From NCBI GenBank assembly GCA_963840935.1, contig CAWJAS010000002.1:7333-71332 (forward strand): a DNA stretch of 64,000 nucleotides, given 5' to 3'. Each line of letters opens with the position of its first letter. Positions within the stretch are counted from its first letter, which is position 1. The position numbers were made by a program, and so were the translations under genes. Below are positions 1,635 to 61,057 of the stretch, one piece after another. This DNA comes from Candidatus Magasanikiibacteriota bacterium. Lineage in GTDB: Bacteria; Patescibacteriota; Patescibacteriia; Magasanikbacterales; GWA2-37-8. Under the pieces are notes generated by a model. The model did no database searches. It had not been told where the DNA came from and saw only the letters and a list, made by a program, of their open reading frames with translations.

Positions 1635-1907
1635 CAGCGCACGCCAAAACGCCGACTCGGCATCATTGGATTGTACGCAGTCACCCACTGGGTGAACGCG
1701 GTGGCCTTTACGATCATGGTCGGCAGTGGGTTGCGGATCTTTAACGCGTATCCGGCCTTTGCTCGAAAAGGAGAGACTTTCTGCTGTTATCCGTTTGAGG
1801 GACTTCGTATCCCCTCATGGCTCACCTTTGGTGCATGGCTGGGTGGCGCGCGCCATTGGCACTTCGCCATGATGTGGGTCCTCGTCGTCACGGGCCTCGT
1901 GTATCTA
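1631..1907 (+). pseudogene. cytochrome b561 / Ni-hydrogenase b-type cytochrome-like N-terminal fragment, truncated at the junction with the 16S gene; probable frameshift near 1650
   Basis: VTHWVNAVAFTIMVGSGLRIF and ARHWHFAMMWVLVVTGLVYLL resemble the HW...A....L.TG helices of PF01292-type cytochromes; ATG at 1631 is in a different frame from the conserved part; the track ORF only stays open into 1908-1955 by chance. Confidence 0.3.
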
Positions 1908-3190
<1,283 letters not shown>

Positions 3191-5103: not shown

Positions 5104-5628
5104 TTAAACGGTCTCTTCACTAACCGCTTCAGGCTTTTTTTCTTCGGTGGCAACCGGCGTTTCCACAACCGTTTCCGGCGTTGTTTCCACAACCGTTTCG
5201 GCCGGTGAAGATACTTCCGCTTTTACTTCGGATTCTGCCGGAACCTCAGCGGGCTCTTCAACAGCAACCTCGACCGGCGGAGTTTGTTCGGCTTGCTTTT
5301 TGGCGTCAGCTTCTGCTTTTTGTTTTGTCTCTTCTTCCAATTTGGCTTTTCTTTTTTTAGACAAATAAACAGACTTCTTTTTTTTGCCTTCGATAATTCT
5401 GGCTGAAATCAATAAATTATTGACGGTTTCCGACAACTGAGCGCCTTTGGAAATCCAATATTTTATTCTATCGACTTTGGCCGACAATTGTTTTCCTTTG
5501 GAATGCGGGTCATAACTTCCAAGTTCTTCCAAACTTGTGCCCCAAGTATCTTTGGTTTTTTCGGAAATAATAAAACGATAGGTGGGCAATTTCTTTTTTC
5601 CTATTCTTTTTAATCTGATAGTTAACAT
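5104..5628 (-). CDS. rpsP: 30S ribosomal protein S16 with ~90-aa low-complexity (E/K/A/T/V/P) C-terminal extension
   Basis: MLTIRLKRIGKKKLPTYRFIISEKTKDTWGTSLEELGSYDPH...AKVDRIKYWISKGAQLSETV. Confidence 0.9.
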   Translation of the reverse strand: MLTIRLKRIGKKKLPTYRFIISEKTKDTWGTSLEELGSYDPHSKGKQLSAKVDRIKYWISKGAQLSETVNNLLISARIIEGKKKKSVYLSKKRKAKLEEETKQKAEADAKKQAEQTPPVEVAVEEPAEVPAESEVKAEVSSPAETVVETTPETVVETPVATEEKKPEAVSEETV

Positions 5629-5738
5629 AAAATATATTCAAAAATCAAAATCCGCCAGCTGGCGGTAAAAGTCAAAATTAATAAATTATGACTTTTTTCA
5701 TTTTGACGGGTTGGGCTTAAGGCCCAGAGAGCTTGATT

Positions 5739-5767
5739 AATATACATTAAAATAATATTGCTGTCAA
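5739..5767 (-). promoter_or_regulatory. sigma-70-like promoter for rpsP (TTGACA-17-TATATT on minus strand)
   Basis: minus strand reads TTGACAgcaatattattttaatgTATATT, ~105 nt upstream of the rpsP start. Confidence 0.4.
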
Positions 5768-5781
5768 CACCGCCCGTAGCC

Positions 5782-8700
5782 TCATTCTTGATTCGGCACA
5801 TCATCAATTTTAACGCTCAATAGCTTCGAAATTCCATCCGAGGCCATGGCCACTCCATAAAGCGCGTCAACTGCGTGCATCGTCACTCGATTATGAGTAA
5901 TCAAAATAAATTGAGCGTGCTTGGATAATTCGGAAATAATTTTGGTAAAACGAATTGTATTTGCTTCATCAAGAGCGGCTTCGACCTCGTCAAGCACCAC
6001 AAAAGGCGAAGGATTATAATTCAAAACAGCACAAATTAAAGCAATGGAGGTGAGAGTGCGCTCCCCTCCAGACAAAGAATTCAAACTTTTTATTTTTTTA
6101 CCCGGCGGATTGGCGGTCACTTCAATACCCATCAAAATCTTTTCTTTTTTATTTTTTAATCGAGTATTTTCCGCAGAAATAATTTGTTCTTGATTTTCAA
6201 AATCAATATTTTCGCCAACATTTTCCGGCACTTCTTCCTCGTACACTTCAACCAAATCCGCATTACCCCCTTCAAATAAAATATTAAAAAATCTGTTAAA
6301 TTCTTTGCGTATATTTCTAAAAGCGACCACTCGTTTTGATTTCATCAAATCATCAAGTTCAGCGGACATTTTGGTCAAATCGGCTGTCGCCTGACGCAAG
6401 TCAGTCAACTGATTAAACAAGAAGTTGAATCTTTCTTTGGTGGTTTCGTATTCGCTTATCACTTCTTCGTCAATGCCTCCGATTAAATTCAATTGGTATT
6501 TTAATTTTTGAATTTCTAGCGCCAATTTTTCATAATCTTCAACTTCCAAAATATCCTGGCGCCGGCCAATAATTGATTCCAAAGAAATATTCATGTCATT
6601 TCTCACTTCTTCATTCAGCGATTCCGCTCTGGTTTCAAGCCGAGCCAAAGCCACCCTCAGGTCATTGCGAACCGTGGCAATGCCGTTCAAATCGTTTTGT
6701 TTAATTTGCATTTGTTCTTGAAGAGAAAAAACATGTTGTTTCTTTTGTTCCTCGCGTTCATTAAAATCCCTCATTTCATTTTCGATTTTTTGGACTATGG
6801 CGACTTTGGCGTTCATCTCGGCCATCAATCTTTCTTTCTCGCGATTTAATTCCGATAATTTTATTCCATACTCTTCAGGGCTCATTTCCACAAACGATAA
6901 TTCGCGTTCAATTTGCGCCAACTCTTTGTCCAAATTTTGTTTTTCGGTTTCAACAAGCGCCCGTTTGGCAACATTTAACTCGCGCTTAACCTCCAAATCA
7001 GACAATTCTTTTTTGGATTGTTCAAGCATTTGTTCAATATCCAAAAGATTTTGCTGTTCCAGAGCAAGAGAACGTTGGCATTCTTTGATTCTATCTTCCG
7101 CCCCCATCATTATTTTTGTGGCAAAACTGATTGAACCAAAACGGTCTTTCCGCCACCCTCCTTTCATCACACCTCGCTTTTCAATCAAATCACCATTCAA
7201 GGTGACCATGCGCGCCCGACCAATGCCGATTAACTGGGCGGTTTTCATATCTTTCACCACCAATGTATTGCCAAGAACAAATTGAAAAATATTTTCAAAT
7301 TTTGAATCAAATTTTATCAAATCAACCGCCTTGCCGACAACACCCGGCTCGTTTACTAATTCGTTTAAAACCGCGTCTTCCTGCCTGGCGGTAATTTTGT
7401 TAATCGGTAAAAATGTGGCCACACCCAATTTGTTTTCTCGCAAATAATCAATCGCTCGCTTGGCAATATCATCCGTTTCCACCACCACCGAAGAAAGATT
7501 GCCTCCGGCAGCCACATCAAGAGCCAGCCGATTTACTTCGTCGGTCTCACCAAGCTCGGCGACAACACCGAATATTTTTCCAATTTGAGATTTGTTATTC
7601 AACACCGCTTTTATGGCCGTAAGCCCGGAAACCTGCAAAAAATTCTGCTCTGATTGGCCTTCAATCATCTCGCTCTGTAATCGAGATATCTTGACCATTC
7701 TTTCGGACTTTTCCGCCAAGCGATCCTCAATTTTCTTTTTTTGCTTCCATATTTCCTCACTCACGGAATCTTCTATCGAAGACAACCCCGCCACTTCACC
7801 TCCGATTTTTTCTTTTTGAAAACTTAACTCATTTGCTTTGTTTTGAAGCCAAGTAATATTTTGTTTACCTTCACGACCATATTCCGCGTGCATCTGCCCT
7901 TCGATAATGGCAATCTGGCGCTCCATTTCATTTTTTATTCGAACCGCTTCTTCATGTTTTTTTTGCAATTCGGAAAAAACTTCCTGCCTGCTGGCGCTAC
8001 GAGCGAATTCCGCCAATTCGGTCTGAATAATATTTAGCTCCTTAAAAATCAAAGCGTGTTTTTCATCAATTGATTTTAATTGGTCTTTTGTGGCATCCAA
8101 TTCTTTTTTATTTTTTAAATACTGGGAAGAATAAAATTTTTCTTGAGCATCGCGCAATTCCATTTCCACCACTTGCCGTTTTTCCAGTTTACGCACTTGT
8201 TTTTGCAAAAGCTTCAATCGCGGTTCAACTTCTTGAATTAACCGCTCCGCTTGAGTCATGTTATCCGTAGTGCGGGCTAATTTTAATTCAGCCTGATGCC
8301 TTTTGATTTTGAATTCTTTAATACCGGCCGCTTCATCCAAAAAATCTTTTCTTTCGGCCGGACTCAACAAAAGCATTTTATCAATCATCCCCTGACCAAC
8401 AATGCCGTATGAACCCTCGGCAAACTGCGCTTGCGCCAAAACCAAATGTATATCGAATAACCTGACATTATTATTGTTGATCAAATATTCGCTTTCACCC
8501 GAACGATACAGCCGGCGAGTAATGGCAATTTCCGGATAATCTTTCAAAACACGGCCATCGGAATTATCAATAATCATCGAGACCTCAGCCATGCCAAGTT
8601 GGCTTTTTGTTTCAGACCCGGAAAAAATCACGTCTTCGCTTTTTTTACCGCGCACCGCTTTCAAACTCTGTTCACCCATTACCCATCGAATCGCGTCCAC

Positions 8701-9968: not shown

Positions 9969-10580
9969 TTGTTAAAAAATATGACTTTAAAAAATCCAAC
10001 TGCGCAACACCTTATACCTATCGTGGTTGAAAAATCCCCATACGGCGAACGCTCTTATGATATTTATTCGCGTTTGCTTCAAGACAGAATTATTTTTTTG
10101 GGCGGACCGATTGATGATGCTTCGGCAAACACAATAATCGCTCAAATGCTGTTTCTAGATAATCAAAGTTCCGACAAAGACATAAAATTATATGTTAATT
10201 CACCGGGCGGGTCGGTCACAGCCGGCATGGCAATTTACGACACCATGCAATTTGTAAAATCCGATGTCTCCACAATTTGCATCGGCATGGCAGCGAGCAT
10301 GGGCGCGGTACTTTTGGCTTCCGGCGCCAAGGGCAAAAGGTTTGCTCTGCCAAATTCTGAAATCATGATTCACCAAGTAATGGGCGGTATGGAAGGCCAA
10401 GCGAGCGACATAAAAATCCACGCTGAACGAATAATCAAAATGAAAGACCGATTAAACAAAATTATTGCCAAGCATACGGGCGTACCGATCGATAAAGTTG
10501 ATAAAGACACAGATCGTGATAATTTTATGTCCGCTTTGGAAGCAAAAAAATATAATATCGTGGATAAAATCCTCGATTAG
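9969..10580 (+). CDS. clpP: ATP-dependent Clp protease proteolytic subunit ClpP
   Basis: [24 protein letters not shown]...[21 protein letters not shown]...[31 protein letters not shown]. Confidence 0.95.
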
Positions 10581-10605
10581 GCAATTAATCCAAATATTAA
10601 ACGTA

Positions 10606-10635
10606 AAAATCGCTAAGATTAGCGATTTTTTTGTA
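10606..10635 (+). terminator. rho-independent terminator after clpP
   Basis: aaaatcgct-aagatt-agcgatttt followed by a T run. Confidence 0.5.
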
Positions 10636-10652
10636 TTTCTTGGGCCTTACTA

Positions 10653-10681
10653 TTGACAAAAAGGTAAAAATGTGATATACT
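10653..10681 (+). promoter_or_regulatory. strong sigma-70 promoter with extended -10 (TTGACA-17-TGaTATACT) driving a non-coding transcript
   Basis: cTATTGACAaaaaggtaaaaaTGTGaTATACT; nearly the same motif recurs at 35914. Confidence 0.5.
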
Positions 10682-10687
10682 AATAAG

Positions 10688-10916
10688 TTCCATAAAAATT
10701 CTAGCTTGGAGTGCGGAAGAGTGGCCGTAAGAGAGAGGCGGTTACACTTCCGTATTCACACAAGCATGGGGATGTGTTAATGGCAAGTACAGGCTACGGC
10801 TCGTCTTCGCCCTTATCACATCTTCTTGAATACGGAAAACCCAAGGGGGGCAATATTCCCCCTAGAAAACAATACTCCCCGCGTACGCCTTTGGCAACGC
10901 GGGGAGTTTATTTTTA
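10688..10916 (+). ncRNA. candidate ~230-nt structured ncRNA (unknown family) with its own promoter and intrinsic terminator
   Basis: no plausible CDS; higher GC than surroundings; 5' UUCUAGCUUGG pairs with 3' CCAAGG...CUAGAA; internal hairpins (GGGGGCAAUAUUCCCCC, CGGAAG...CUUCCG); ends in ccccgcgtacgcctttggcaacgcgggg plus U tract. Confidence 0.4.
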
Positions 10917-10928
10917 TTCAAAAAATTA

Positions 10929-12977
10929 TTAAGTTGAGGTCGCGGAAGAACTCTCGTCAGGCAAAGTCGGAATAACTTCCGCCGGTTCCTCGCTCGCTGG
11001 CTCGCCATCAGGCGAAACAGGTTCTTCTGATTCTCCCGTTTCCACAGGTTCACAACCATTGGGGTCGGAACACCCATCTTCACTAATTCCCGCAACACAA
11101 ATTTTTGGCAAAGCCCTGTAGGTGCTTGTGAAAATTCGATCAATTTGTTCCGTGGTTGAAGTGAAACGCGTATAGGTAAAACTGGCCACCGCCCCCCTGA
11201 ACGCATTTTGGCATTTTTGCACTCCGGGCTCGAGGTTCGTGCTGTACGTAATAATCGGATCCCCTGCCGGAATCCACCTGCTAACCAAAGGACGGCTGTA
11301 ATAACCATAACGTCCATCCGGCTTGCCCCACAAAGTAAAAGTCAATAATTGTTTTTTATAATCAATATTGGTTTCCAAAAGCAAATACCCTCCGGTATCA
11401 TTCAAAAATTTAAAATCCAAAATCGGTTCATATATAGTGGCATCCGTTCCGGGGTTTTTATTCACCGGGTCCGCGTAATAACCAACGACAAGAGAATGAT
11501 TCGTACGCTCAGTAATCGGCATACCCGAATTCATCGCCATCCGAAAAAGTGTTGTGCCGATTTGGCACATTCCACCGCCGACTTCCTTTTTGATTTCATT
11601 TCCTTTAATTACTTCTTCAGGCAAATAACCATTTTCCGAAGTGAACGGGCCGGCATAACGAGTGGTGGAAAACTCCTCGCCCGGAGCAATAATCGTGCCG
11701 TTTAAAAGCGCTACCGCATGAGCAATGTTTTTTATGCGATTTGTGTGGCTGTCAAAAAAAGTGGAGGTACCGGCGCCGAGAATCGCAGTGATACCCAAAT
11801 TATTAATATCGGCTAATTTTATTTTTGGCTCTACTGTTTCCACAATCAAAGCCACCGTACCGGTTGCCCCGACAGCGCCAATATTCCTATCGCGCATTAC
11901 CGAATTTATGGCTTCAACGGTTTTTTCAATATTCAATTGCTGGCCGGCGGAACCGCTTCTGAATTCTTTAACTCGACCATCAACCATCACAAATTTTGAT
12001 TCATCAGTCGGACGGTCAAGAGTATATTTATAATTTTCAAGATATTTGGCGGTCTTTTCTGGGTCAAGCTCAAAGATGATTTCTTCTTGGTCGTTCTTAA
12101 CCGGAGTTAGCCACTCGGTAATATCTTTTTCTTTAATTTGCGCATTTTTGGACACCGCGCTTACAGGGTCCACATAAGACAAGCTAATATCGCCATAACT
12201 CAATACTTTTTCTATAATCTCATGCTTATCTTGTAAATCACTGGCAAAAACACTTGCTTCAACCCTTGTTTGCTTAATTTTTATCGCTTCCAAATCCAAA
12301 ACAGACAAACGAGCGGAAGTATCGTCCATTATTTTTTTATAATCAAAAACAACGCCCGATTGTTCACCAAGAACATCATATTCAACGGGGTTTTTGGCGG
12401 TAATTGCCACTTTGGCCTCCAATGGAGTAATTTCGTATTGTTCGAGAGAGGATTTTAATAATTCCAAAAACTGTTCCTCCCTGATGTTAACAGCCAATTT
12501 TATTTTTATCGGCGAAAAACGAAGGGCGATAATTTTCCAATATTTTTTTAGACCCTGAGTTTCTCGCCCATACTGAAAAACGGTTTGTTCAAAATTATCA
12601 CTGTCAACGGAAAAAATATCCAACACACTATCGCCATCCACAAACGACGCCGGAATGTGGGCTGTTTTCTCTTGCCCGTCAATTTCAAATTTATAAATAA
12701 TACCTTCTTTATTCAAGCGGTTATTCAAACCGAATATAAACGATTTAACTTCTTCTCCGGTCATCGCTTCAAGCGAATAATCGCCCAAAAAAACTCCGGG
12801 ATAAACCTTGTTGTCATATTTTTTGTCATAAGCATAAACACCGCCGGCCAGAATTGCGCTTAATATGATTAAACTGGCAAGTACAATTAAAAAAATACGC
12901 CAAAAAACACGAATTTTTGTTTTTCCGGTAAAATGATCAATGGCTGAATCAATTTTTTCTTTTATTTCTTCGGGCAT
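10929..12977 (-). CDS. VanW/YoaR-family membrane-anchored protein with PG-binding-like N-terminal region and acidic C-terminal tail
   Basis: VanW-like core GGGMCQIGTTLFRMAMNSGMPITERTNHSLVVGYYADP...DATIYEPILDFKFLNDTGGYLLLET; N-terminal TM helix; start moved to ATG 12977 to avoid overlap with hsp20. Confidence 0.8.
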   Translation of the reverse strand: MPEEIKEKIDSAIDHFTGKTKIRVFWRIFLIVLASLIILSAILAGGVYAYDKKYDNKVYPGVFLGDYSLEAMTGEEVKSFIFGLNNRLNKEGIIYKFEIDGQEKTAHIPASFVDGDSVLDIFSVDSDNFEQTVFQYGRETQGLKKYWKIIALRFSPIKIKLAVNIREEQFLELLKSSLEQYEITPLEAKVAITAKNPVEYDVLGEQSGVVFDYKKIMDDTSARLSVLDLEAIKIKQTRVEASVFASDLQDKHEIIEKVLSYGDISLSYVDPVSAVSKNAQIKEKDITEWLTPVKNDQEEIIFELDPEKTAKYLENYKYTLDRPTDESKFVMVDGRVKEFRSGSAGQQLNIEKTVEAINSVMRDRNIGAVGATGTVALIVETVEPKIKLADINNLGITAILGAGTSTFFDSHTNRIKNIAHAVALLNGTIIAPGEEFSTTRYAGPFTSENGYLPEEVIKGNEIKKEVGGGMCQIGTTLFRMAMNSGMPITERTNHSLVVGYYADPVNKNPGTDATIYEPILDFKFLNDTGGYLLLETNIDYKKQLLTFTLWGKPDGRYGYYSRPLVSRWIPAGDPIITYSTNLEPGVQKCQNAFRGAVASFTYTRFTSTTEQIDRIFTSTYRALPKICVAGISEDGCSDPNGCEPVETGESEEPVSPDGEPASEEPAEVIPTLPDESSSATST

Positions 12978-12978
12978 T

Positions 12979-13422
12979 TTATTCTTCAATAATGGTAATC
13001 GGTATTGTTTGATTAATGTGAATTTTTGGCAAACGAACAATCAGAAGTCCTCGTTTGTATTCGGCTTTAGCCATGGCAAAATGAACATCGGCTGGCAAAA
13101 CAATACTGCGAGAAAAACTTCCCCAATAACACTCGGCAAAATGAAATATTGAACCACTCTCTGCCGGTGAACGCCTGGCGCCTCTTATAGTCAAAAGGTC
13201 ATTGTGCAAATGCAGTTCGATATTATCGGGCGACGCTCCGGCCATTGGCGCTATCACAATAAACTCTGTCGGCGTTTCGGCCACATCAACCGCAAGTTGG
13301 CCTTCGTGGTGCTGTTCGATTTCGGCCGTATTTTTTAAACCGGTAAAAAAATCCAAATCAACCACGTCTTCATCCGGCCGGTCAATTGAGATGCTTAATT
13401 TTTGATTATTTATTACCGACAT
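12979..13422 (-). CDS. Hsp20/alpha-crystallin small heat-shock protein
   Basis: EFIVIAPMAGASPDNIELHLHNDLLTIRGARR...FSRSIVLPADVHFAMAKAEYKRGLLIVRLPK. Confidence 0.9.
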   Translation of the reverse strand: MSVINNQKLSISIDRPDEDVVDLDFFTGLKNTAEIEQHHEGQLAVDVAETPTEFIVIAPMAGASPDNIELHLHNDLLTIRGARRSPAESGSIFHFAECYWGSFSRSIVLPADVHFAMAKAEYKRGLLIVRLPKIHINQTIPITIIEE

Positions 13423-13471
13423 AAAATAGCATATTCTTTACTAAAAAGTATTATCTATATTATATCATTTG

Positions 13472-13516
13472 GCAAAAAAAAACAAAACCCGCCTTGAGTT
13501 CCAAGGACGGGTTTTT
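13472..13516 (-). terminator. rho-independent terminator after the coiled-coil protein gene
   Basis: minus strand aaaacccgtccttggaactcaaggcgggtttt followed by a T run. Confidence 0.5.
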
Positions 13517-13534
13517 AAATTCTTTCAATCCGAA

Positions 13535-14329
13535 TTATTCAGCAGTTACAACCGGAAAAGCACTTTTTAATGATGATTTGGCGGTAGCTAACGCGGTTTT
13601 AAAATCCTCAATCGCTTTTTGCACCGCGTCTTTATGCGCGCTGTTAATTTCTTTTATTGAATCACTAATAGGGGCAATCTCGCTTTTGCTCTGTTTGTAG
13701 CGATCACGAGCTTCTTTAACTTGAGCTTGCAATTGCGTACGCATTTGAGCAAAATCAACATCGCCAGCATTGCATTTTTCCTTCAAAGCTCCTTCCGCGT
13801 TTTGAACCTCCTCGCGAAAAGAATTGTTGCGCGCTTCAACTTGATTTTTATGCTCATTCATTAACTGCTCCATTTGGGTTTGACGAGCTGAGTTCGCCTC
13901 TTCAATATCCGTACGGCGCAGAGTTACGGCCGTTTCAACCGCTTCTTTGAACTCGGCAACCGCTTGTTTTTGTTCATCGGTTACGGCAGACGCGTTTAAT
14001 TTATCGTAACCGGCCAAACGCTTCGCGTCCAGGTCCGTTCTTTTTTGTTCCATTTTTTGCTCTGCCTCAGCACGCTTTTTTTCCATCTCTTGCGTTTTTT
14101 CTTGGCGTTTATTTTCCAATTTTTTATCCATTTCATTCAAGCGCGCTTCGCGATTAGCGGAAAATTCGCCTAATCTTGAACAAACGTTGGCCATTATTTT
14201 TTGGCCCATCGCTGAATTGGTGCTGGACTGCATCATCCTCGGCGCTTCCATCATTCCAAACGCCGGAGAAGCGACAAACGCTCCGATCACTACCGCGAAA
14301 ATCGCGGTCTTTATTTTTTTATTGTTCAT
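13535..14329 (-). CDS. secreted coiled-coil protein (signal peptide, charged heptad-rich), hypothetical
   Basis: N-terminal signal peptide MNNKKIKTAIFAVVIGAFVASPAFG; E/K/Q-rich remainder. Confidence 0.6.
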   Translation of the reverse strand: MNNKKIKTAIFAVVIGAFVASPAFGMMEAPRMMQSSTNSAMGQKIMANVCSRLGEFSANREARLNEMDKKLENKRQEKTQEMEKKRAEAEQKMEQKRTDLDAKRLAGYDKLNASAVTDEQKQAVAEFKEAVETAVTLRRTDIEEANSARQTQMEQLMNEHKNQVEARNNSFREEVQNAEGALKEKCNAGDVDFAQMRTQLQAQVKEARDRYKQSKSEIAPISDSIKEINSAHKDAVQKAIEDFKTALATAKSSLKSAFPVVTAE

Positions 14330-14816
14330 ATAGGTATGCGATATTTTCTATATTAACCAAGGCTTCGTTTTCGTAATCAACAAAATATAAATCCATAGAT
14401 TCGTCATCAAGCATTTCATCGCCATTAAAAGCGCTCTCAAACACTTCATCAACAGCTTGGTTGACTTCAGGCGAAGAAAAAACGATTGATTCAATTGACG
14501 CTACTTGTGTCTGTTTTGGAGCGATTATTTTACCGCCAAAATACCAATAGCCAAAAGCCAAAACAGCAACTGCGACAAGACCGACGGGTAATACTTTTTT
14601 TGTAAATTGACTCATAATATTATTAATATTAAATATATTATTTTTTCGACCTTTGTTATTTTCTGTGAAAGAATAACGGCTGTCTTTTTTAACTGTGACA
14701 GATTTAGGCAAGCGCGATAATAACGCTTTAAAATGTTCGGTCGAGGGTTTGATTTTTTCCCCTTCGGCAAATAGCATTTTTTCTAATTGTTCTTCTTTAA
14801 TTTCCATATTCTTCAA
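14319..14816 (-). CDS. membrane protein, putative anti-sigma factor partner of the upstream ECF sigma
   Basis: single TM helix (VLPVGLVAVAVLAFGYWYFGG); overlaps the sigma factor gene end by 20 nt. Confidence 0.45.
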   Translation of the reverse strand: MKNMEIKEEQLEKMLFAEGEKIKPSTEHFKALLSRLPKSVTVKKDSRYSFTENNKGRKNNIFNINNIMSQFTKKVLPVGLVAVAVLAFGYWYFGGKIIAPKQTQVASIESIVFSSPEVNQAVDEVFESAFNGDEMLDDESMDLYFVDYENEALVNIENIAYLYEQ

Positions 14817-15354
14817 TTATAATTCTTAATTTTTTTAGCGCCCTAGATTGCCTTTGGCGCACGGCGTCTTCGCTTAAATTTATAATCAAGGCTATTTCTT
14901 TGGCCGGTAAACCGCTAAAATATTTGAGCAATATCACTTCACGGTCTTCTTCTTCAAGGCGGGATATATATTTTTGAACATCGGCAGACAATTCTTTTTG
15001 CGCGCACTCGGCTTCTTGGTTAGGGCGATTATCCGGAATATTGCCAAAAACATCTGATTCTTCATCGCCTATAATTTTATCTTTTTTCTTTCGCCAATAA
15101 TCAATCAGAGTATTTCTGGCGACAGTAAAGAGCAAGCGCAATGGGGTACTATTCGGTTCAAGGCGATGGAGTGATTCATACACTTTCAAAAAAACCGTCT
15201 GAACAAAATCATCAGTCAAGTCCTTGTTTTTTGTCCGGCCGTAAATATAGCGATAAACTGGCGTGTACATTTCTTCATAAATTTGCCCGAAAGCCAAATT
15301 ATCTCCGTTTTTAGCGCGCGACATTAACTCTTTGTAATCTAAAATATCATCCAT
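14797..15354 (-). CDS. RNA polymerase sigma-70 family (ECF-type) sigma factor
   Basis: region 2 FVQTVFLKVYESLHRLEPNSTPLRLLFTVARNTLIDYWRKK; region 4 LPAKEIALIINLSEDAVRQRQSRALKKLR. Confidence 0.85.
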   Translation of the reverse strand: MDDILDYKELMSRAKNGDNLAFGQIYEEMYTPVYRYIYGRTKNKDLTDDFVQTVFLKVYESLHRLEPNSTPLRLLFTVARNTLIDYWRKKKDKIIGDEESDVFGNIPDNRPNQEAECAQKELSADVQKYISRLEEEDREVILLKYFSGLPAKEIALIINLSEDAVRQRQSRALKKLRIIIEEYGN

Positions 15355-37016: not shown

Positions 37017-40000
37017 TTAGCTTCCTGCCATCGGCACAACCACCACCCAGCCATCATAATATATCCAAGGTCTCACCTTATTTATTTCACAATCATTAAC
37101 AGTCATCTCACTATAACACCCTTTCCCATCTACTTGTGGATTTGAAGAATATGTACAACTCCCCGTGCACCAACCCCAATTATCAAGCACATGAACTTTT
37201 GGCCGGGCAACGCAAACATATGGGGCATTATAAAAATTCTGACGGATATAATTCCAATCAATTGACCTGCCGGAAATCGGAGTATCCGGCTGTTCGTTGC
37301 TCATCACAATCTCCATTGTGCCATAAGGGCAATTATAGTCCATTACAAAATCCCAAGGTTTATCTTTGCAACCGGTGTCTGTGGTGTTGCCGAAAGTTCG
37401 CTCCTCGGCGCTTTGCGGATAACAAGATGAACCACCGCAATCGGCATTAGTATTGCACGTAAAAGGCCAATCTTCTTCGTCGTTACCGCATGTACTATCA
37501 GTGCACAAAGGTTTTCTATTACCTATTGAATCGCTAATTTCCGAATCAACTTGTGTATCATTATCATCACCTTTATTAACAACCACTCTGCGTAAGGGCA
37601 TTTGATTGCCATGCGCCCAAGCATAAAATTTAATTCGCGTCTGCGAACCGGAAAATAAATAAATATTCCCACTGGTGGTGCCATTGACAGAAATTTTGTC
37701 TAACTCCCAAGAACTGCCTGATGGCGCGGCAACTTGAGGCGGATAAATATCCATTTGTCCAATTCTACTTGCATTTGTTGGATTCGCAGCATCAACTTCT
37801 TGATAATACGATACATACCCGATATCAAAACCGTTTTCCACGTCATTATAATAATAATCATAGACTTTTGCGAACATGCTTTTCATCAACACTTTTTCAA
37901 AAGGCCCTTGTTGCATTGAAGTAGTATCTTCCATGGCATCCAAACTATATTTAAAATATTCGGGAAGACAATAAGACCCAGTACAATCATTTTTACGCTT
38001 ACCGCTCCAAGCAACAGACAGCGGGGTGCCAGCCTTATAATTTGTAAACGCATAATTATTATCTTGACTTCCGTTTTGCGAAAAAGGAATATTCTTTGTA
38101 TCTAAATTTAAATTAAAAACAAATGGGTTAATAAAAGCTGCGGTGGTAATACCTGTGATATCCACTAATCCGGATTCTGTACTGTAAGCAAGGCCGTATT
38201 TTCCGCCATTCAACGTCTCTTCTCGAGGAGAAACTTGCGCGGTCGTTGGATAATTACTACTAAAACTGACGACCTTATCTGTATTTAATCGATTGGTAAA
38301 CGGTTTGGCCAAGAAGTCGCTCGTGCTACTAACCATTGAGACCTGAGCGAACTTTTGACATTTACCGGGAGCAAAATGAATAACAAAGAAATAGCCTAAA
38401 CCGGAGTTGCCAGAATGTAAACCATTTTCAACATTCAACCAAATACCGCGGAAATAGTATTGATCATCAAATACTATCCTAACTCCGATACTTTCTTTTT
38501 CATCTTCAAAAGCATGATAAACCATTCTGTCTTTATCTTCACAAATTCCCTCAATAGCTATTTTTTCCTTACCTAAATCAGTGCTACTTCCATCAGACCA
38601 TTGATTCAACCAATTCGGACTGCCACTGTTTTTTGCATACCAAGTCCAGGCGCGCCAATCTTTACCGTCTTTACACAAATTATCCAACGAAGCGGTTGAA
38701 ATACTTGTTTCACCTTCATTGGTTATCCAACCACCGTCTTCTGTAATAAAAGCTCTGTTTGATTCTTCCTCTGCGTCCGCATCGACTGAATCTCTTATGA
38801 AACTGACCCACCCTCCTCCTTTTGGCATATTGGTCGCGCTGTCAAGAAATACATCTATTCTTTCTATTTCATCGCGATGAATATATTTTCCGCTTTCAGT
38901 GTTCAACCATTTTCTATCTGTATACCACCAACCCTCGTTGTCCCTGCACCCTTCCGGTGTCTCATAGCAACCCCTTTGTGTCAATTCATCAACATCTGTA
39001 ATGTCAACATTTACAGGACAGTACCAGCCATTAGAATCATTACTATCGGTAGACTGATAGTAACGCATATCCCAACCCCAATCACTACTAACTTCATATG
39101 AACAACCGATTAATATCGCGTTATCCGGAACACCTTTTATGCCCATACCGGCTGACAAACTTAAATCAGAAATCATTGAATCGTCTCTCATCATTCCTTT
39201 GGGCCAATTACCTCCGAAATCTTTTGCATTAGAATTACCCATGGCAATGCCGACATTTTGATATGAATCTTGTATAGTAGGCTCATTTTCCAAACACATA
39301 AATCTATCCTGCGCGCCTTCAAGAATTTCATATCCGGCATTCGGGTCTTGCTCCCAATAATTGGGAATACCCGGCGGATATTCGAGTGGGAACCAAGTCA
39401 AACAAGCATTGGAAGTTGAACCGTAAATTCTTTGGCGTTCGTCTCGTTCGGTGCAATAGCCAAGCCAGCCATTCATCACTTGAAAACTATTTATTTTGGA
39501 GCAGATTCCACCTTCTCCGCATTGAGTGGTTGTTTCCGGGTCAGTGCAAAATTTGCCTTTGTACGGGCCGGATGAACAAATATAATTACCGGACATTGAT
39601 TCTGTTTTGCTTATACGCTTGTAAACATCGCCACTGCCGGTTTTTAATTTTCGATATGAACAATAATAATCATAATCGCAAGAAACCGGATTGCCATTAT
39701 CACTATAACATAAGTTCACATTTTCAAATCCCGTTTTGTATTGAAGCGGTTTATCTCTTTCATAATCAATAAGCACGCTCGACCTGAAAGGACTGACTTC
39801 TTCGGCATATGCCCGGCAAGTCAATACTCTTGATTGCGCCGGATTTGTGGCGCTGTATCCTTTCAAACATTCGCCGTTATAACAATAACCCCAAGTACCA
39901 CCGGGCCCGCACTGGTCGCCATCGTCTTTTTGTCCATAAAGAAGATCTGCGGAATCATAACAGCTATTGATATCGTCTTCATTCAAAAAACTATATTGAT

Positions 40001-43000
40001 TGTTCACATAAACCAAACGATAAGTGTCATCAATTTTTCTGGCTGTAAGGTCGGGCACTTGATAAGTGTTAAAAAGCGAATAACCGGAAAAATCCCAGGA
40101 ATCCCAAGAGGTCATCAAATCCTGATAATAATCTTTTGACAATGTTTCACCTTTTGTATCCCAATCGGTCGCCGGTTCGGCGCAATCCTTGACCACTCGA
40201 CCGGCGACAGTGTCAACCGCGCCGGCGCGATTACAAACACCAAGATGATAGCAACGATTTTTTATTTCACCGGAATCTTCATCTTCAAATTCTTGTTTAA
40301 GGTCGCAATAGGCCCACTCTCCGCAAACACGGTCTTGAGTCACTTTAATAATAATATTGGCGTCATTACTACCAGTAAGAGAAACCGGCGCGACAAGAGC
40401 GTCGTTTAATTCACGCGATGTTTCATATGATGAAGTGGTGTGCCAAAATTTATTTGGATTGCCGGTTTTATCAAGCAAAACACATCCTTCCGCTCGGCTG
40501 ATTTGGCCGTTACACTTGCTTTGAGCTTCACTTAATTTTGTATTATCAATTAAATAATAGGCGTTGCTCGTATTAACCACGCAATATCCGTCAGTTTCCG
40601 GAACACAGTCACTATCGGCATTGCACTTTTTACCGCTAATGGAACATTTTTTGTTTTCTTGCGTACTACTCCAATCAATAAATTCATTACAACCCGACTG
40701 TTCTTCGGGGCAAAGACCGACAAAACCGGTATATTTTTCTGTGTTGCCGAATGACCAAAGACCATACACTCCAAAAGATTTATTTTCCGCGTAACAAGGA
40801 AGTTGATTTTTGAACATACATTTACCTATGCCAATATGGTTCTCACAGTCGGTGTCAGCGGTACAGGCTCGACCCATATATAATCCGGCGTCTTCCAAAA
40901 TACAAATTCCGGTATCTTTCCATATCCACCCGGTTGAGTTAGGATGCGCGGATAATTTCGAAGTTGAAGTTGGTTGCATTTGCAATGTTGCCGGCAAATG
41001 GATAGCGATAAAGGCTTCTGTCTTGTATTCACAAATCAAACCGCCGTTTGTTACCGGGTCTTTAAAGTAATAATTGCTCTGGCTTGAAGACCATGATTTG
41101 CAGGATTCGGCCTCGGAGAAACAAGACATTGATTCATAAAGAGCCGGGTCATTTTTTATGCCCACGGCCTCAAATGTTTCATAGTGAGTGAACAGCGTGG
41201 TTGGATTGCCAAAAAAATCAAAATTATAACTCTTTCCGCTTATGTTTGTTGTGGCGCGCCCCACAACTTGGCAACCCATATTTTCGGATTTGCATGTGGC
41301 TGATTTATTGGCCACCAAATATATGGGCGTGCTTGACGGAGTATCCGCCGGAATAAATATGGTTGAATCAACCAACTTTGGCTTTGCGTTATCACCGACA
41401 GTTTCCCCGCCGTTAAATATTTGCTCCGCGGTTTTATCAAAAACATCAACATAACAACCTGTCTGGCCGGTCGGGGCAAAACATTCAAAAAGTTCACCAT
41501 CTATTGTTGCTTTTGCTTGCATCCCCGGAGTTAAACTGGGTTCATACATAAGCAATTCCAATCGCACATTATAAGCGCGGGAAGTCGTATCTTCCGGAGT
41601 GTTAAATGTGTCAATCAAAGCGGTGCAACCAACCGCCGCTTCACGGCATAAATAATTAAAATTGGTAAGATAGTAATTGGTTTGTGTCGGGTCAGTGTAT
41701 GCCGAACAACCCAAGGCCTCGCCCGGTAAATTATCATTTGTGTTACTGTCGCAAATCGGGTCAACACTCAAAGAATTTTTTACCAAATACAGGTAATCAT
41801 CAACTTCCGTCAAAATAATATTATCTATATAAATCTGCCCGACACTATTCCCGAAAGTAAAACGCAATTCACCGCTCAAGGTATCTTCTCCGTTGTATTC
41901 AACCGGTCCCAAGGAATAATAGCGCCAAACATCCGATAAAACTAAAGTGTTGTCAGATAATGATTGCTCTGTCATGGTGGAATTATCCAACAAAGCAATT
42001 TTGTTTATCGCTAAATTGCCTTTCGCCCAAAATGACAAAACGTAATTCTTGCCTTTTTTAAATGATAAATTAATTTTACCGGCCAGACTATTAGCAGATG
42101 CCGATTCGGCTGTAATTTTGAGAGAATGACCTTCGAGCTGAGTCGATTCCGTGGAAATTATCTCGCTCATGCTAGCCGTAGTTTTCCAATCAATCGTTGT
42201 GGTTGAATATTCAAAATCCTCTTCAACAATCTTGCGAACATTGTATCCGGCGTTACCTTTGAAGGACCGGCATGAATTTGATTCGGCAGAACAGGCAATA
42301 CTATCGCCGGCGCCATTTGTGTTGCCGGTAAAGCCCATATAGAAACAAGCATTGCTTCGGAATTCAACCGTGGCATCACCGGTGTGGTTGTCAACTTCAC
42401 CATTATCAAAATCAAACGGACAGCGAGGGGCCTCGCTTTCATAAGAAATCAATTCAGTGTTATTAAGCCGGTACGGAGTGCACTGGTCGGTGACAATTAA
42501 TGTTTTTGAAAGCATGGCATAATGCGTGTCGCCAAATTCATCAATAAATTGATGACAATCTGGTTCGGCCGTTTTGTTAGCGTAGCTCTCTTCCGAGCAA
42601 TAATCATTATCCGGCGCGGTATATTTATTCATCTCATCTCCATCGCGATAAATTTGTTTAGGCCCGTTTGATTTGTCGCTCTTCGCCAAAGTATATGTTT
42701 TAATTTCATAGCCTTTTGTTTCGGAACGCTCATAGACAGTGTAATTTCTTTGCAAATTTTGGTCAGGCAAAATGCACGGACGCAAATAAGTGAAGTATTC
42801 GTTTTGTTCCAATCCGCCGACCGTGGTGGATAAATTTGTGAACGAACTGCAACCGGCTTCTTCGGCCGAGCAAGTTTTTCCGGATGATGGAATAATGTAT
42901 GTTATTAATTCACCATTGGTGTAGTTACTTGGCATTTCACGATAAGCATCATAACCAACGCATTTGTAATCGCATTGGTCGTTCCATGTGACAATTCCCC

Positions 43001-45293
43001 CTTCAACAACCGCCGGCGTAAACTTGCCCGGAATCACTTCACGGGTCAATGCCGAGGTATAAAAATTACAATTTTCTTCTTCAGGCAAACAAACTTGGGC
43101 GTATTGATTGCAAGCTTCTTTGTTTTGCGGATTAATCAAATTTAAATCAGAAAAAGTCAAAGGCCATTGAATGCCGTTTTTTAATTTTTTATTTATTAAA
43201 TCAACCTTATTAACGCCGGTTGAGCTATCAGCATCATAACAACCCAAATAATCCGGAGCTTTTCGCAAATATATTAATGTATCCGTATTTGAGGCGAGTT
43301 TAAACGCGCTACAACCATCATCGGCCGAATTACATGTCGCCACTTTTTTGTTAAAAAATAAACTGGTGTTAAAAAATATATCGTGAGCCACTTGGTATTC
43401 CGCTATGGCCGGGAACCAATCCGTGCTCGTTGCCGTATCGTAATATTCTACTTGCGAATACCGCCGGCATCCGTCATTTTCTTCATTGCAACTTACCGTG
43501 TCCAAAGTGCGTAATAAATATGAACCGGTTGTTTTGTCGGAAGCAGTGAAAGCCAGACAACTATTGTATTGTTCGTCACAATAATCCGCGTCAAAACTCC
43601 AAATCGGCTTTTCTCTCAAGCAATAACCCCAATTGGCGCAAGAGCCATCGGAGTTAAATTTAACGCAATGCTGAATATCGGCGCAATATTGCAAACGCAC
43701 CGGACTATCGGTGTAATTAACGGCGCTGTAAGCAAGCGACCCGCATCTGGTTTTTGGATATTTAATAATCCAATACGGATTTACCAAATGATAAAATTTT
43801 GAGGTTTCATCATAATAAGCGTCCACCACTTCTTTGAGTGTCGCTTCATTGCCTTCAGTCGAATATGAAGAAGCAATCTCGAGTCCCAAAGGCATTATTC
43901 GCAACAATCTGAGCATCCGAAGATTGCGATTGCAATACGCTTCCAAAGCGCAATCACGCTTTTGATTCATGGCTTCATTATTCGCGGAATAGAGTTTCCA
44001 ATCACCGTGCAAAAGACCCTGTTCAATCGCCTGCTTGATGGTTAAGGCTTGACCATAACTGGCTTGGCTCAATATTTGCAAAAATGATTGGTCAACCACG
44101 CAGGCATCAGGCGCAAAATTATCCGGCGAACATTCCGCCAAATTGCCGGTCGGGTCATAATTTTCAATCGTGCTGATTTTTGGCATTAACAATTCCGAAA
44201 ACATTTCTTGCGCCGCTCGTCTTTGGCCGGATGTTCCGCCGGCTGAACCGGCTGAGTAATAATCTCCGGCCACTGATTCATCGTCAAGACACATATTCCA
44301 ACCCAAACCGGAAATACTTAATCCGGGATTGCATATTACCTTTCCTCCGGGCAACATCCCTTTGGTGATAAAGTTATCAATTACCGTGCCCAATAAAGTG
44401 TTAACAAAAGTGGCGGCAGTATTGGTTAAAAGTTGAATTCCACCTTTTTGCACCGCCATACCCATGGCGGCCGTGTTCACATCTGAATCATCTTTTTTCT
44501 TTGTTGAGGGGGCTTGTGCCTGAAATTCTTGCGCCATTACGGTAGCTGGTACTTTTGTTTTTCCGGAAATAATATCTTTCAAAGGGTTAACACCATCTCC
44601 CTCTTGACGATCTAAGGACTTACCACCTTCAACTTCAACCGCGTAATTATCAACTTTTTGTTTGGCGGAAAACCAAATCCCAAAATCAGTATCTTTAACC
44701 GAAATCCCGCCTTCAAGTCTGTTCATCAACCCTTCTTGGCTGGCATACTGGCTCCGAATATTATCTATATTATATGCTTCGCGCAATTGTTGCCATGTAC
44801 ACCTTGGCTCTGGCGGGTCAGCGCCAAAATGAAAACCAAGTTGTAAAGCCAATTGCAAACGCAAATCCGGCAAATTACACAAATCCATGCCCAGCATATC
44901 ACCCATTGAACCGATAATTTCACCAAGAGCGTCACCGGCGGTTTGGGCCAGATAATCCTTAAAACTTTTTGTTTCCGCAAAGGGTCCTTGCCCCAAATCA
45001 CCGGAGGCAAGCCACACCCCCATATCATAAGCGATTTTATTGGCAAAATAGTTCAAGCCATTGGTCACGGCACCAATAGCCAAAAGAAGCATTTTTTCTT
45101 TTGCGTTCATTTTTACTTCAGTGACTCCCTGTTTTACCAACCAAGCTTCCATGTTGGGGGATTGAAGAGGTATCGACACTGTCATTTGCGCTTTTGCGAT
45201 ATTTGGCACCAAAAATAATGACCCAAAAACAGAAATAAAAACAAAAACAATCGTCATCGTTAATAATCTGAATTTTGTATTCCCAAAAATCAT
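37017..45293 (-). CDS. giant secreted/cell-surface protein (2,758 aa), Cys-rich
   Basis: uninterrupted 8.3 kb ORF with N-terminal signal peptide MIFGNTKFRLLTMTIVFVFISVFGSLFLVPNIAKA. Confidence 0.8.
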   Translation of the reverse strand: MIFGNTKFRLLTMTIVFVFISVFGSLFLVPNIAKAQMTVSIPLQSPNMEAWLVKQGVTEVKMNAKEKMLLLAIGAVTNGLNYFANKIAYDMGVWLASGDLGQGPFAETKSFKDYLAQTAGDALGEIIGSMGDMLGMDLCNLPDLRLQLALQLGFHFGADPPEPRCTWQQLREAYNIDNIRSQYASQEGLMNRLEGGISVKDTDFGIWFSAKQKVDNYAVEVEGGKSLDRQEGDGVNPLKDIISGKTKVPATVMAQEFQAQAPSTKKKDDSDVNTAAMGMAVQKGGIQLLTNTAATFVNTLLGTVIDNFITKGMLPGGKVICNPGLSISGLGWNMCLDDESVAGDYYSAGSAGGTSGQRRAAQEMFSELLMPKISTIENYDPTGNLAECSPDNFAPDACVVDQSFLQILSQASYGQALTIKQAIEQGLLHGDWKLYSANNEAMNQKRDCALEAYCNRNLRMLRLLRIMPLGLEIASSYSTEGNEATLKEVVDAYYDETSKFYHLVNPYWIIKYPKTRCGSLAYSAVNYTDSPVRLQYCADIQHCVKFNSDGSCANWGYCLREKPIWSFDADYCDEQYNSCLAFTASDKTTGSYLLRTLDTVSCNEENDGCRRYSQVEYYDTATSTDWFPAIAEYQVAHDIFFNTSLFFNKKVATCNSADDGCSAFKLASNTDTLIYLRKAPDYLGCYDADSSTGVNKVDLINKKLKNGIQWPLTFSDLNLINPQNKEACNQYAQVCLPEEENCNFYTSALTREVIPGKFTPAVVEGGIVTWNDQCDYKCVGYDAYREMPSNYTNGELITYIIPSSGKTCSAEEAGCSSFTNLSTTVGGLEQNEYFTYLRPCILPDQNLQRNYTVYERSETKGYEIKTYTLAKSDKSNGPKQIYRDGDEMNKYTAPDNDYCSEESYANKTAEPDCHQFIDEFGDTHYAMLSKTLIVTDQCTPYRLNNTELISYESEAPRCPFDFDNGEVDNHTGDATVEFRSNACFYMGFTGNTNGAGDSIACSAESNSCRSFKGNAGYNVRKIVEEDFEYSTTTIDWKTTASMSEIISTESTQLEGHSLKITAESASANSLAGKINLSFKKGKNYVLSFWAKGNLAINKIALLDNSTMTEQSLSDNTLVLSDVWRYYSLGPVEYNGEDTLSGELRFTFGNSVGQIYIDNIILTEVDDYLYLVKNSLSVDPICDSNTNDNLPGEALGCSAYTDPTQTNYYLTNFNYLCREAAVGCTALIDTFNTPEDTTSRAYNVRLELLMYEPSLTPGMQAKATIDGELFECFAPTGQTGCYVDVFDKTAEQIFNGGETVGDNAKPKLVDSTIFIPADTPSSTPIYLVANKSATCKSENMGCQVVGRATTNISGKSYNFDFFGNPTTLFTHYETFEAVGIKNDPALYESMSCFSEAESCKSWSSSQSNYYFKDPVTNGGLICEYKTEAFIAIHLPATLQMQPTSTSKLSAHPNSTGWIWKDTGICILEDAGLYMGRACTADTDCENHIGIGKCMFKNQLPCYAENKSFGVYGLWSFGNTEKYTGFVGLCPEEQSGCNEFIDWSSTQENKKCSISGKKCNADSDCVPETDGYCVVNTSNAYYLIDNTKLSEAQSKCNGQISRAEGCVLLDKTGNPNKFWHTTSSYETSRELNDALVAPVSLTGSNDANIIIKVTQDRVCGEWAYCDLKQEFEDEDSGEIKNRCYHLGVCNRAGAVDTVAGRVVKDCAEPATDWDTKGETLSKDYYQDLMTSWDSWDFSGYSLFNTYQVPDLTARKIDDTYRLVYVNNQYSFLNEDDINSCYDSADLLYGQKDDGDQCGPGGTWGYCYNGECLKGYSATNPAQSRVLTCRAYAEEVSPFRSSVLIDYERDKPLQYKTGFENVNLCYSDNGNPVSCDYDYYCSYRKLKTGSGDVYKRISKTESMSGNYICSSGPYKGKFCTDPETTTQCGEGGICSKINSFQVMNGWLGYCTERDERQRIYGSTSNACLTWFPLEYPPGIPNYWEQDPNAGYEILEGAQDRFMCLENEPTIQDSYQNVGIAMGNSNAKDFGGNWPKGMMRDDSMISDLSLSAGMGIKGVPDNAILIGCSYEVSSDWGWDMRYYQSTDSNDSNGWYCPVNVDITDVDELTQRGCYETPEGCRDNEGWWYTDRKWLNTESGKYIHRDEIERIDVFLDSATNMPKGGGWVSFIRDSVDADAEEESNRAFITEDGGWITNEGETSISTASLDNLCKDGKDWRAWTWYAKNSGSPNWLNQWSDGSSTDLGKEKIAIEGICEDKDRMVYHAFEDEKESIGVRIVFDDQYYFRGIWLNVENGLHSGNSGLGYFFVIHFAPGKCQKFAQVSMVSSTSDFLAKPFTNRLNTDKVVSFSSNYPTTAQVSPREETLNGGKYGLAYSTESGLVDITGITTAAFINPFVFNLNLDTKNIPFSQNGSQDNNYAFTNYKAGTPLSVAWSGKRKNDCTGSYCLPEYFKYSLDAMEDTTSMQQGPFEKVLMKSMFAKVYDYYYNDVENGFDIGYVSYYQEVDAANPTNASRIGQMDIYPPQVAAPSGSSWELDKISVNGTTSGNIYLFSGSQTRIKFYAWAHGNQMPLRRVVVNKGDDNDTQVDSEISDSIGNRKPLCTDSTCGNDEEDWPFTCNTNADCGGSSCYPQSAEERTFGNTTDTGCKDKPWDFVMDYNCPYGTMEIVMSNEQPDTPISGRSIDWNYIRQNFYNAPYVCVARPKVHVLDNWGWCTGSCTYSSNPQVDGKGCYSEMTVNDCEINKVRPWIYYDGWVVVVPMAGS

Positions 45294-60936: not shown

Positions 60937-61009
60937 GCGCCTGTAGCTCAGGGGTTAGAGCGAACGGCTTATAACCGTTAGGTCGATGGTTCAAATCCAT
61001 CCAGGCGCA
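60937..61009 (+). tRNA. tRNA-Ile with anticodon UAU (reads AUA), CCA not encoded
   Basis: GCGCCUG-UA-GCUC-AGGGGUUA-GAGC-G-AACGG-CUUAUAA-CCGUU-AGGUC-GAUGG-UUCAAAU-CCAUC-CAGGCGC-A. Confidence 0.75.
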
Positions 61010-61057
61010 CAACGCTTAGCGCCACACAAAGCTTAGTGTTCCATATAAGATTAGTAT

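Follow-up and report, generated by a model that had tools for sequence, protein, structure and literature searches.

The gap between clpP and vanW in a genome of a Candidatus Magasanikiibacteriota bacterium (GenBank assembly GCA_963840935.1, contig CAWJAS010000002.1, positions 7,333 to 71,332; this whole stretch of 64,000 nucleotides (nt) is referred to as the window) almost certainly harbors a genuine and conserved noncoding RNA gene, as judged by sequence comparison. The gene, predicted to extend from a promoter beginning at position 10653 of the window to a terminator ending at position 10918, is best explained as encoding an independently transcribed, structured noncoding small RNA (sRNA) of a new family that would act in trans and exist in two states, a reading to which we assign a probability of roughly 0.55. 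Action in trans rather than cis-regulation is probable because nothing lies downstream on the strand of the RNA in any of the loci compared, and a functional two-state design, which derives from modeled folds, stands at about even odds. The predicted sRNA is the founding example of a hitherto undescribed family; as a kind, i.e. as a lineage-specific structured sRNA, it is already familiar.

A conserved RNA locus

The RNA gene lies within a gap of 348 nt, with clpP upstream and a convergent vanW gene downstream. A metagenome scan using VanW as the query led to two loci, L081 and L082 (VanW identity of 43–48%), in which the gene order DHH–clpP, gap, vanW recurs and an obvious homolog of the RNA resides inside a gap of ~320 nt. 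Further loci were obtained from the contigs of VanW relatives in the protein database, several of which carry the name Candidatus Magasanikbacteria or Patescibacteria in their source records. An RNA homolog is present in every locus that reaches downstream of vanW, amounting to 13 distinct sequences (those of the window, L081, L082, L083, L084, L086, L089, L090, L091, L093, L094, L096 and L098, with L092 being a near-identical variant of L091) at VanW identities of 43–98%. The synteny, with hsp20–vanW pointing toward the RNA and clpP–DHH, is kept together with the RNA homolog in 13 out of 13 distinct loci, and the downstream vanW is convergent in each of them. Across the 88-nt core of the RNA (10750–10837), DNA identity to the window copy ranges from 72 to 94%, as compared with 68–77% for the clpP genes; by this measure, the core is shown to be under stronger purifying selection than clpP.

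Two of the loci carry extra DNA between clpP and the RNA: ~600 nt in L093 (~5300–5964), with a 52-amino acid (aa) hydrophobic open reading frame (ORF), and a 188-aa ORF in L098 (5531–6097, plus strand) that is visibly far richer in G+C than its surroundings. Both are probably insertions. The RNA nevertheless retains its own promoter and its position at the 3′ end of vanW in L093 and L098, which argues for an independent unit rather than a 3′ untranslated region of clpP. A pattern scan of viral contigs and blastn searches against phages and plasmids gave no match and thus no sign of a mobile-element origin.

The family so far appears to be restricted to one group of Patescibacteria, also known as the candidate phyla radiation (CPR), several members of which are labeled Candidatus Magasanikbacteria. 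Scanning a genome collection with ClpP, which mostly returned unrelated, non-CPR phyla, revealed no copy of the RNA by nhmmer, blastn or covariance model. Nor was the RNA found in seven other Patescibacteria clpP loci with filters switched off, which is weak evidence because these loci cover only ±6 kb.

Promoter, terminator and predicted transcript

The original prediction, made by a model from the window alone, had proposed that a near-perfect promoter and a strong terminator bracket a structured RNA devoid of a credible ORF, and all of these elements were recovered. The promoter consists of the −35 hexamer TTGACA (10653–10658, plus strand) and, after a 17-nt spacer, the extended −10 element TGaTATACT (10673–10681, plus strand), scoring 11/12 plus the TG extension, and is of the σ70 type. 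All 13 homologous loci share TTGACAA without variation, and TGnTAYAMT recurs with identical spacing in 12 of the 13 distinct sequences, the remaining one (L098) displaying TATAAT at a 17-nt spacer without the TG. The promoter comes after a terminator hairpin of clpP's own (10605–10630), clpP itself (9981–10580, plus strand; Pfam CLP_protease) ending further upstream. From the promoter geometry, an as yet unmapped transcript start is predicted at ~10686–10688; directly 3′ of the −10 element, (A/U)GUU is found in 12 of the 13 sequences.

At the other end, the intrinsic terminator (10874–10918, plus strand) combines a G+C-rich stem of 11 bp, which encloses a mini-stem, with a subsequent U tract: the stem, ACUCCCCGCGU...ACGCGGGGAGU, covers 10874–10907, and UUUAUUUUUAUU comes next. 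A strong terminator hairpin with a U tract is found in every homolog, 3′ of a hairpin termed H3 that is described below. The terminator adjoins the stop codon of vanW (10929–10931; the gene, 10929–13040 on the minus strand, encodes a convergent 703-aa VanW/PG_binding_4 protein). Being flanked 5′ by an A-rich run and 3′ by a U-run, it is probably bidirectional, serving both convergent units.

The predicted transcript of 229 nt has a minimum free energy of −99.3 kcal/mol, compared with −62.4 ± 4.6 kcal/mol for dinucleotide shuffles (z = −8.1), and folding of the opposite strand stands out less from its shuffles (z = −6.1). The predicted length of ~230 nt compares with ~190–290 nt in relatives. 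In agreement with the internal hairpins that had been anticipated, folding models place a rod and two hairpins, H1 and H3, in the homologs as well. Inside the RNA, the ORFs are limited to one of 73 aa that starts with GTG and continues across the terminator and one of 49 aa that starts with TTG, neither of which is credible, and the public records contain no gene call in the clpP–vanW gap of any locus.

A rod-shaped core supported by covariation

Covariation across the homologs shows the core to fold, in comparative alignments, as an irregular rod. Two alignments were used, a MAFFT alignment of 12 sequences (A3) and a model-fitted alignment of 13 sequences (A4). The outermost helix, P1, joins strand C (CCGUAUUC, 10750–10757, plus strand) on its 5′ side to strand T (GAAUACGG, 10828–10835, plus strand) on its 3′ side; this C:T pairing, CCGUAUUC/GAAUACGG, is canonical in 13 of 13 sequences, with compensatory changes at three positions. 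P1 is followed by an asymmetric internal loop, for which both A3 and A4 place ACACAAGCAU (10758–10767, plus strand) on the 5′ side opposite UU (10826–10827), so that 10–11 nt face 2 nt (or 1) on the 3′ strand. Within this loop, which is unpaired in the RNAalifold consensus, the segment ACAAGCAU is nearly invariant. The remainder of the rod, P2–P5 (10768–10825, plus strand; GGGGAUGUG...CACAUCUUC), begins with P2, formed by GGGGAUGUG/CACAUCUUC, and continues through three more short helices set apart by conserved bulges and mismatches up to an apical tetraloop of the YNMG type, UACG (10795–10798, plus strand), which reads UACG, UUCG, CACG, UAAG, UUAG or UUUAA across the homologs. P2–P5 comprise 23 pairs, with 95% of the alignment cells canonical and compensatory changes in five pairs.

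Taken over the whole rod, 96.2% of the cells in A3 are paired and 8 of the 31 pairs show a compensatory change, a result that 0 of 500 shuffles reach, and controls with slid partners give 37–53% paired cells and at most three compensatory pairs. A4 behaves in the same way, with 96.3% of the cells paired, eight compensatory pairs, again 0 of 500 shuffles reaching these values, and 38.5–51.9% paired cells and at most three compensatory pairs in the slid-partner controls. RNAalifold, run independently, gives essentially the same rod. The comparative alignment that had been suggested as a check on the element thus returned a homolog in each of 13 loci and eight compensatory pairs, in other words conservation of both sequence and pairing.

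In each of the 13 loci, a covariance model built from the core (R1) scores 77–109 bits on the strand that is sense for clpP versus 14–32 bits on the other strand. It finds a single copy in the window (10750–10837) and no match in ~1 Mb of other fetched loci. One G–U pair in the apical helix is invariant and others are frequent in P1 and P2 and also occur in P5, which agrees with transcription of the plus strand.

Competing strands and flanking hairpins

Strand C has two potential partners, T and an upstream strand termed F (GAGUGCGGAAG, 10709–10719, plus strand; family consensus GGAUnCGG). At the base of hairpin H1, F provides the 5′ side; it always sits immediately 5′ of the inner stem of H1, is complementary to C and is positionally conserved. 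The apical part of H1 (10721–10745, plus strand) varies in sequence and in length, from ~25 to ~100 nt across homologs. Its loop is purine-rich in the closer relatives of the window copy, and a hairpin is predicted at this position in every homolog, the distant copies being unalignable there.

F:C is part of the minimum-energy fold of all 13 sequences because it stacks on H1. Of its cells, 86% are canonical, and a single position is compensatory; in 8 of the 13 sequences, the duplex outperforms dinucleotide-shuffled versions of the upstream region (p < 0.05). Forcing P1 instead costs 2.1–9.9 kcal/mol in 12 sequences and 3.6 kcal/mol in L098. According to the energy model, the less well conserved, earlier-transcribed F therefore wins, leaving the perfectly conserved T single-stranded. 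Selection on both partners of C would be most simply explained if both folds occur. Mutually exclusive helices that share a strand are a riboswitch trait; the terminator is not among the competing helices here.

Upstream of F lies the A-rich 5′ leader (10686–10708, plus strand), whose terminal GCUUG is able to pair with the CAAGC present in the internal loop. When base pairing of this loop with either the leader or F is compared with shuffles, the advantage is marginal, the combined p of ~0.013 being derived from non-independent sequences in which the register varies between copies; such pairing could conceivably take the form of an extension of H1 or of a pseudoknot. Downstream of the rod, hairpin H3 (10844–10863, plus strand), whose stem consists of a G-run and a C-run, is predicted in all homologs. 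Its stem reads GGGGG/CCCCC in most of them, CCCGAC/GUCGGG in L081, GCCCC/GGGGC in L082 and GGUCGC/GCGACC in L098, and an A-rich spacer separates it from the terminator.

Comparison with known RNA families

Rfam 15, with its 4227 families, was searched both at gathering thresholds and at E ≤ 10. At gathering, the whole window yields only a 16S rRNA fragment and two tRNAs, with neither 10550–10980 nor the corresponding gaps in 11 homologous loci (80 kb) giving a match; the scan proposed alongside the original prediction, where a trivial known family had been the concern, thus returned no family for the RNA. At E ≤ 10, the matches in the region 10550–10980 are all weak (miRNA precursors, SpF22, IS128) and located on hairpins or terminators, and the divergent copies L096 and L093 give differing, equally weak lists, amounting to mutually inconsistent and mostly terminator-driven noise. 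With no Rfam match, the RNA is not a 6S RNA, RNase P RNA, signal recognition particle (SRP) RNA or transfer-messenger RNA (tmRNA) as currently modeled. In the literature that we could search on noncoding RNAs of Magasanikbacteria, Patescibacteria or the CPR, we found nothing relevant.

Inspection of individual features points the same way. A 6S RNA had been one of three identities offered for the element, together with the observation that its 5′ and 3′ ends are complementary. The complementarity itself (UUCUAG/CUAGAA and CUUGG/CCAAG) exists, in the window and in L083 (88% VanW identity) only; it is lost in L084, L086, L089 and the more distant homologs, and in 9 of 12 sequences the duplexes that the leader forms with the 3′ segment do not surpass shuffles. 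A long stem closed by the termini is consequently not a conserved feature, the central two-sided bubble of 6S RNA is absent given the 10–11 nt versus 2 (or 1) nt of the internal loop, and 6S models have no match at E ≤ 10, so that the 6S assignment falls away. The second identity, a reduced RNase P RNA, rested on motif resemblances that turned out to lie in the variable H1 or in a linker. For the P4 strands of conserved regions I and V (CR-I, GGAAAGUCC, and CR-V), the closest string, GGAAAGUC, occurs in L090 only, within the variable H1, the remaining 12 sequences either lacking it or deviating from it; RNase P models have no match at E ≤ 10 in the window, L096 or L093, and this identity was dropped as well.

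The statement that the canonical P4 sequences, the SRP motif and tmRNA ends are missing was borne out. The apical loop is not of the GNRA type, no AGCA motif adjoins it and no Rfam SRP model matches, which excludes an SRP (4.5S) RNA, and ARAGORN reports two tRNAs and no tmRNA in the window. A cis-acting riboswitch or leader is the less probable reading since the next gene, vanW, is convergent in 13 of 13 loci rather than located downstream in the same orientation, and an anti-terminator was rejected since inspection revealed no conserved complementarity of T or H3 to the terminator. What is left standing of the three identities is a novel sRNA, and with a predicted promoter and terminator of its own, no coding function and conservation across loci, the RNA would have the generic hallmarks of a free-standing bacterial sRNA.

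Potential targets and genomic surroundings

Searches for targets were made in the window and in related genomes. Matches to the C-strand sequence TTCCGTATTCA occur in the window at chance frequency only. For CAAGAAGATG, the complement of CAUCUUCUUG in the rod, nine matches in the window contrast with 4.75 expected, a number reached by 5 of 100 shuffles, and none of these matches is at a suggestive site. No consistent site emerged when duplexes were predicted with the start regions of hsp20, clpP, DHH and SMC in 10 genomes. When the invariant strands were compared with the 16S fragment, three probes gave one match (z = −2.2 versus shuffled probes), which falls partly in a species-specific rRNA segment: CAAGCAUGGGGAUGUG (10761–10776) is partly complementary to ...GCGCAACCCAUGUCGUGUG... 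at around position 1096 of the 16S gene. This complementarity is probably due to chance.

Opposite the RNA, on the minus strand (12979–15354) and in the homologous loci, lies a conserved cluster encoding an extracytoplasmic function (ECF) sigma factor, two to three proteins without a Pfam domain, Hsp20 and VanW. It looks like an envelope or heat-stress module, and no link to the RNA could be shown.

Three further observations concern the remainder of the window. The 16S rRNA gene (1852–3183, minus strand) matches positions 9–1335 of 1533 of the bacterial small subunit model only, and its 3′ part including the anti-Shine–Dalgarno tail was not found within positions 1–1900 at E ≤ 0.01 or by pattern; this could reflect a truncated gene, a long insertion or a mis-assembly of the metagenome-assembled genome. 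A tRNA-Ile with the anticodon UAU is located at 60937–61010 (plus strand). Bacteria mostly decode AUA with a lysidine-modified CAU tRNA, which makes a UAU anticodon unusual. Finally, a single ORF of 2758 aa spans 37017–45293 on the minus strand.

Proposed mode of action and alternatives

The internal loop and the flanking, near-invariant P2 are likely to be the recognition site for a partner because their sequence is conserved beyond the needs of pairing. Among the conceivable partners a protein would come first, as a tentative choice, and a small ligand or another RNA would be possible as well. In the proposed mechanism, F would capture C at the base of H1 to form the kinetically first and thermodynamically favored fold, and T would form P1 with C only once F has been displaced, be it by a partner binding at P1 or the loop, by a trans RNA invading through the A-rich leader or by 5′ processing. 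One specific version, which the modeled folds allow and which we regard as doubtful, is a free-standing conformational switch whose partner acts at the invariant loop and P1 to tip the balance between F:C and P1. The partner would then be a protein, a metabolite or a trans RNA that enters through the A-rich leader in a toehold fashion, and the flip would expose or hide F and the leader, or T, for action in trans.

Several points speak against a trans-acting, two-state sRNA as the overall explanation. The start and the ends of the transcript are predictions only, and the searches for targets or partners among neighboring starts, window sites and the 16S fragment gave nothing consistent. With regard to the structure, the shuffle control ignores phylogeny and many columns of the core are invariant, hence uninformative on pairing. 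The case for F:C in particular suffers from its single compensatory position and a central mismatch in 6 of 11 distinct rows, from a pairing count that is biased by F8 having been picked as the best-pairing 8-mer, and from energy models that ignore stabilization by tertiary contacts or partners, meaning that the preference for F:C may fail in the cell. Moreover, all 13 sequences come from a single clade, and the distribution of the family was sampled through genome and metagenome scans that used the proteins ClpP and VanW as queries.

Among the alternatives, the RNA could be a pro-RNA matured by 5′ processing, in which the leader, F and part of H1 would be removable and serve to hold C. Cleavage in or near H1 by an enzyme of the RNase III, Y or J type would free C and let P1 form without any reversible sensing, leaving a mature form of ~165 nt made up of the rod, H3 and the terminator. 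It would account for F:C always being favored initially while T:C is better conserved, and H1, a long and near-perfect duplex of variable sequence, has the look of a processing substrate or spacer rather than of a recognition site. Yet a conserved processing-site motif is missing and the conservation of F (GGAUnCGG) would be needless in a disposable spacer, and we consider such a precursor unlikely. Decidedly less likely is a functional analog of 6S RNA that binds the σ70 holoenzyme via open-promoter mimicry and has diverged past current models, even though the RNA is free-standing, ~200 nt long, endowed with a consensus housekeeping promoter and apparently shaped as an irregular rod with an internal loop that might rearrange, and even though Rfam 15 offers no other 6S candidate in the 64-kb window. 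6S RNAs conserve shape more than sequence, quite unlike the near-invariant primary sequence seen here; in addition, the Rfam 6S models return nothing at E ≤ 10 on three divergent copies, the termini lack a conserved closing stem, a loop of 10–11 versus 2 nt makes no large bubble, and two extra hairpins, H1 and H3, lie outside the rod. The housekeeping RNAs other than 6S fare worse still, and a highly diverged version of one of them (a reduced RNase P RNA, SRP RNA or tmRNA) is scarcely plausible: besides the motif resemblances noted originally, GGAAAGUC in L090 and the apex ACAGGCUnCGGCUC faintly resemble CR-I and CR-V of RNase P, but there is no Rfam match, the CR-I-like string belongs to the variable H1 and is missing from most homologs, and a GNRA loop, an AGCA motif and tRNA-like ends are all lacking. 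The apparent confinement to one clade also argues against it, as does, weakly, the absence from the seven Patescibacteria clpP loci, given their ±6 kb.

The remaining alternatives would shift the function away from a trans-acting RNA. A riboswitch-like sensor might control read-through of the terminator and thereby the production of antisense RNA to the convergent vanW–hsp20 operon, with P1 of the rod competing with an alternative helix, the invariant loop providing a binding pocket and the RNA staying at the 3′ end of vanW despite the extra DNA toward clpP in L093 and L098. Such a sensor is very unlikely considering that the competing strand lies upstream of the aptamer-like rod and not in an expression platform, that inspection found no conserved anti-terminator pairing of T or H3, that the terminators are long and G+C-rich with good U tracts in all copies, and that the RNA does not overlap the coding sequence of vanW. 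A small protein encoded by the core frame (...HKHGDVL..STGYGSSSPLSHLLEYG...) was rejected as highly improbable. The same core frame is open over 31–73 codons in 10 of the 13 sequences, as it would be anyway in near-invariant DNA. Its integrity is broken by one-nt indels in the loop and apical region that shift the frame in L081, L082, L091 and L098, the starts are scattered between −83 and +25 as counted from strand C, with ends that vary as well, the frame of the window continues across the terminator hairpin, codon positions one to three hold 21, 18 and 18 of the variable columns, respectively, compensatory changes in the stems alter residues, and no gene is called there in public records. 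Lastly, C/T and F/C are inverted repeats at the DNA level and the site lies between convergent genes, such that one might think of protein-binding repeats or of a bidirectional terminator region. This notion is barely credible in view of G–U pairs being tolerated on the plus strand only (77–109 versus 14–32 bits), of a dedicated, conserved promoter that points inward and of compensatory changes that keep the pairing rather than the sequence.

Relation to known systems and outlook

The closest precedents for a free-standing, trans-acting sRNA of this type are the ‘Gene; sRNA’ motifs of Weinberg et al., which are reportedly lineage-specific orphan structured sRNAs revealed by comparative genomics. 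Like those motifs, the RNA is free-standing with its own promoter and terminator, has no downstream gene, shows covariation and is seen in one lineage; it differs from them and from the 4227 families of Rfam 15 in giving no match, in its unusually high sequence conservation and in its conserved pair of competing strands. 6S RNA (ssrS), whose members undergo functional refolding, shares with it the length of ~200 nt, the noncoding nature, the housekeeping-type promoter and the irregular rod with an internal loop, and is set apart by the closing stem formed from its termini, its two-sided bubble, the lack of extra 5′ and 3′ hairpins and its representation in Rfam. EutX/Rli55 and SreA/SreB are riboswitch-containing or riboswitch-derived sRNAs. 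They resemble the RNA in having a P1-closed rod with an alternative strand partner, in ending at a terminator and in having no ORF in cis, so that its output would be in trans as well; in contrast to them, no known aptamer class is present, the competitor is located upstream and the terminator does not visibly take part in the competition. In the hok mRNA, fold-back inhibition is relieved by refolding that is coupled to processing. The modeled folds of the RNA are similar in that exclusive helices share a strand and the fold that forms first, and is more stable, hides an alternative with better conservation; unlike hok, there is neither a toxin ORF nor an antisense partner gene, and the masking strand is 5′ rather than 3′.

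CPR bacteria, or Patescibacteria, nearly all of them uncultured, are characterized by tiny genomes, and to our knowledge essentially no noncoding RNAs beyond the universal ones have been described in them. With genomes of ~1 Mb, these organisms possess very few regulators. An RNA that is conserved above clpP and kept at one locus with a consensus promoter while proteins are 45–60% identical likely matters to the cell. The covariance model and the defined structure make it a target for metatranscriptome mining and in vitro probing, by which the two-state prediction can be tested. If the proposed switch were true, the RNA would serve as a gated riboregulator or as the RNA subunit of a lineage-specific housekeeping ribonucleoprotein, and if the competing-strand design proves functional, it would represent a natural sRNA gated by an upstream strand.

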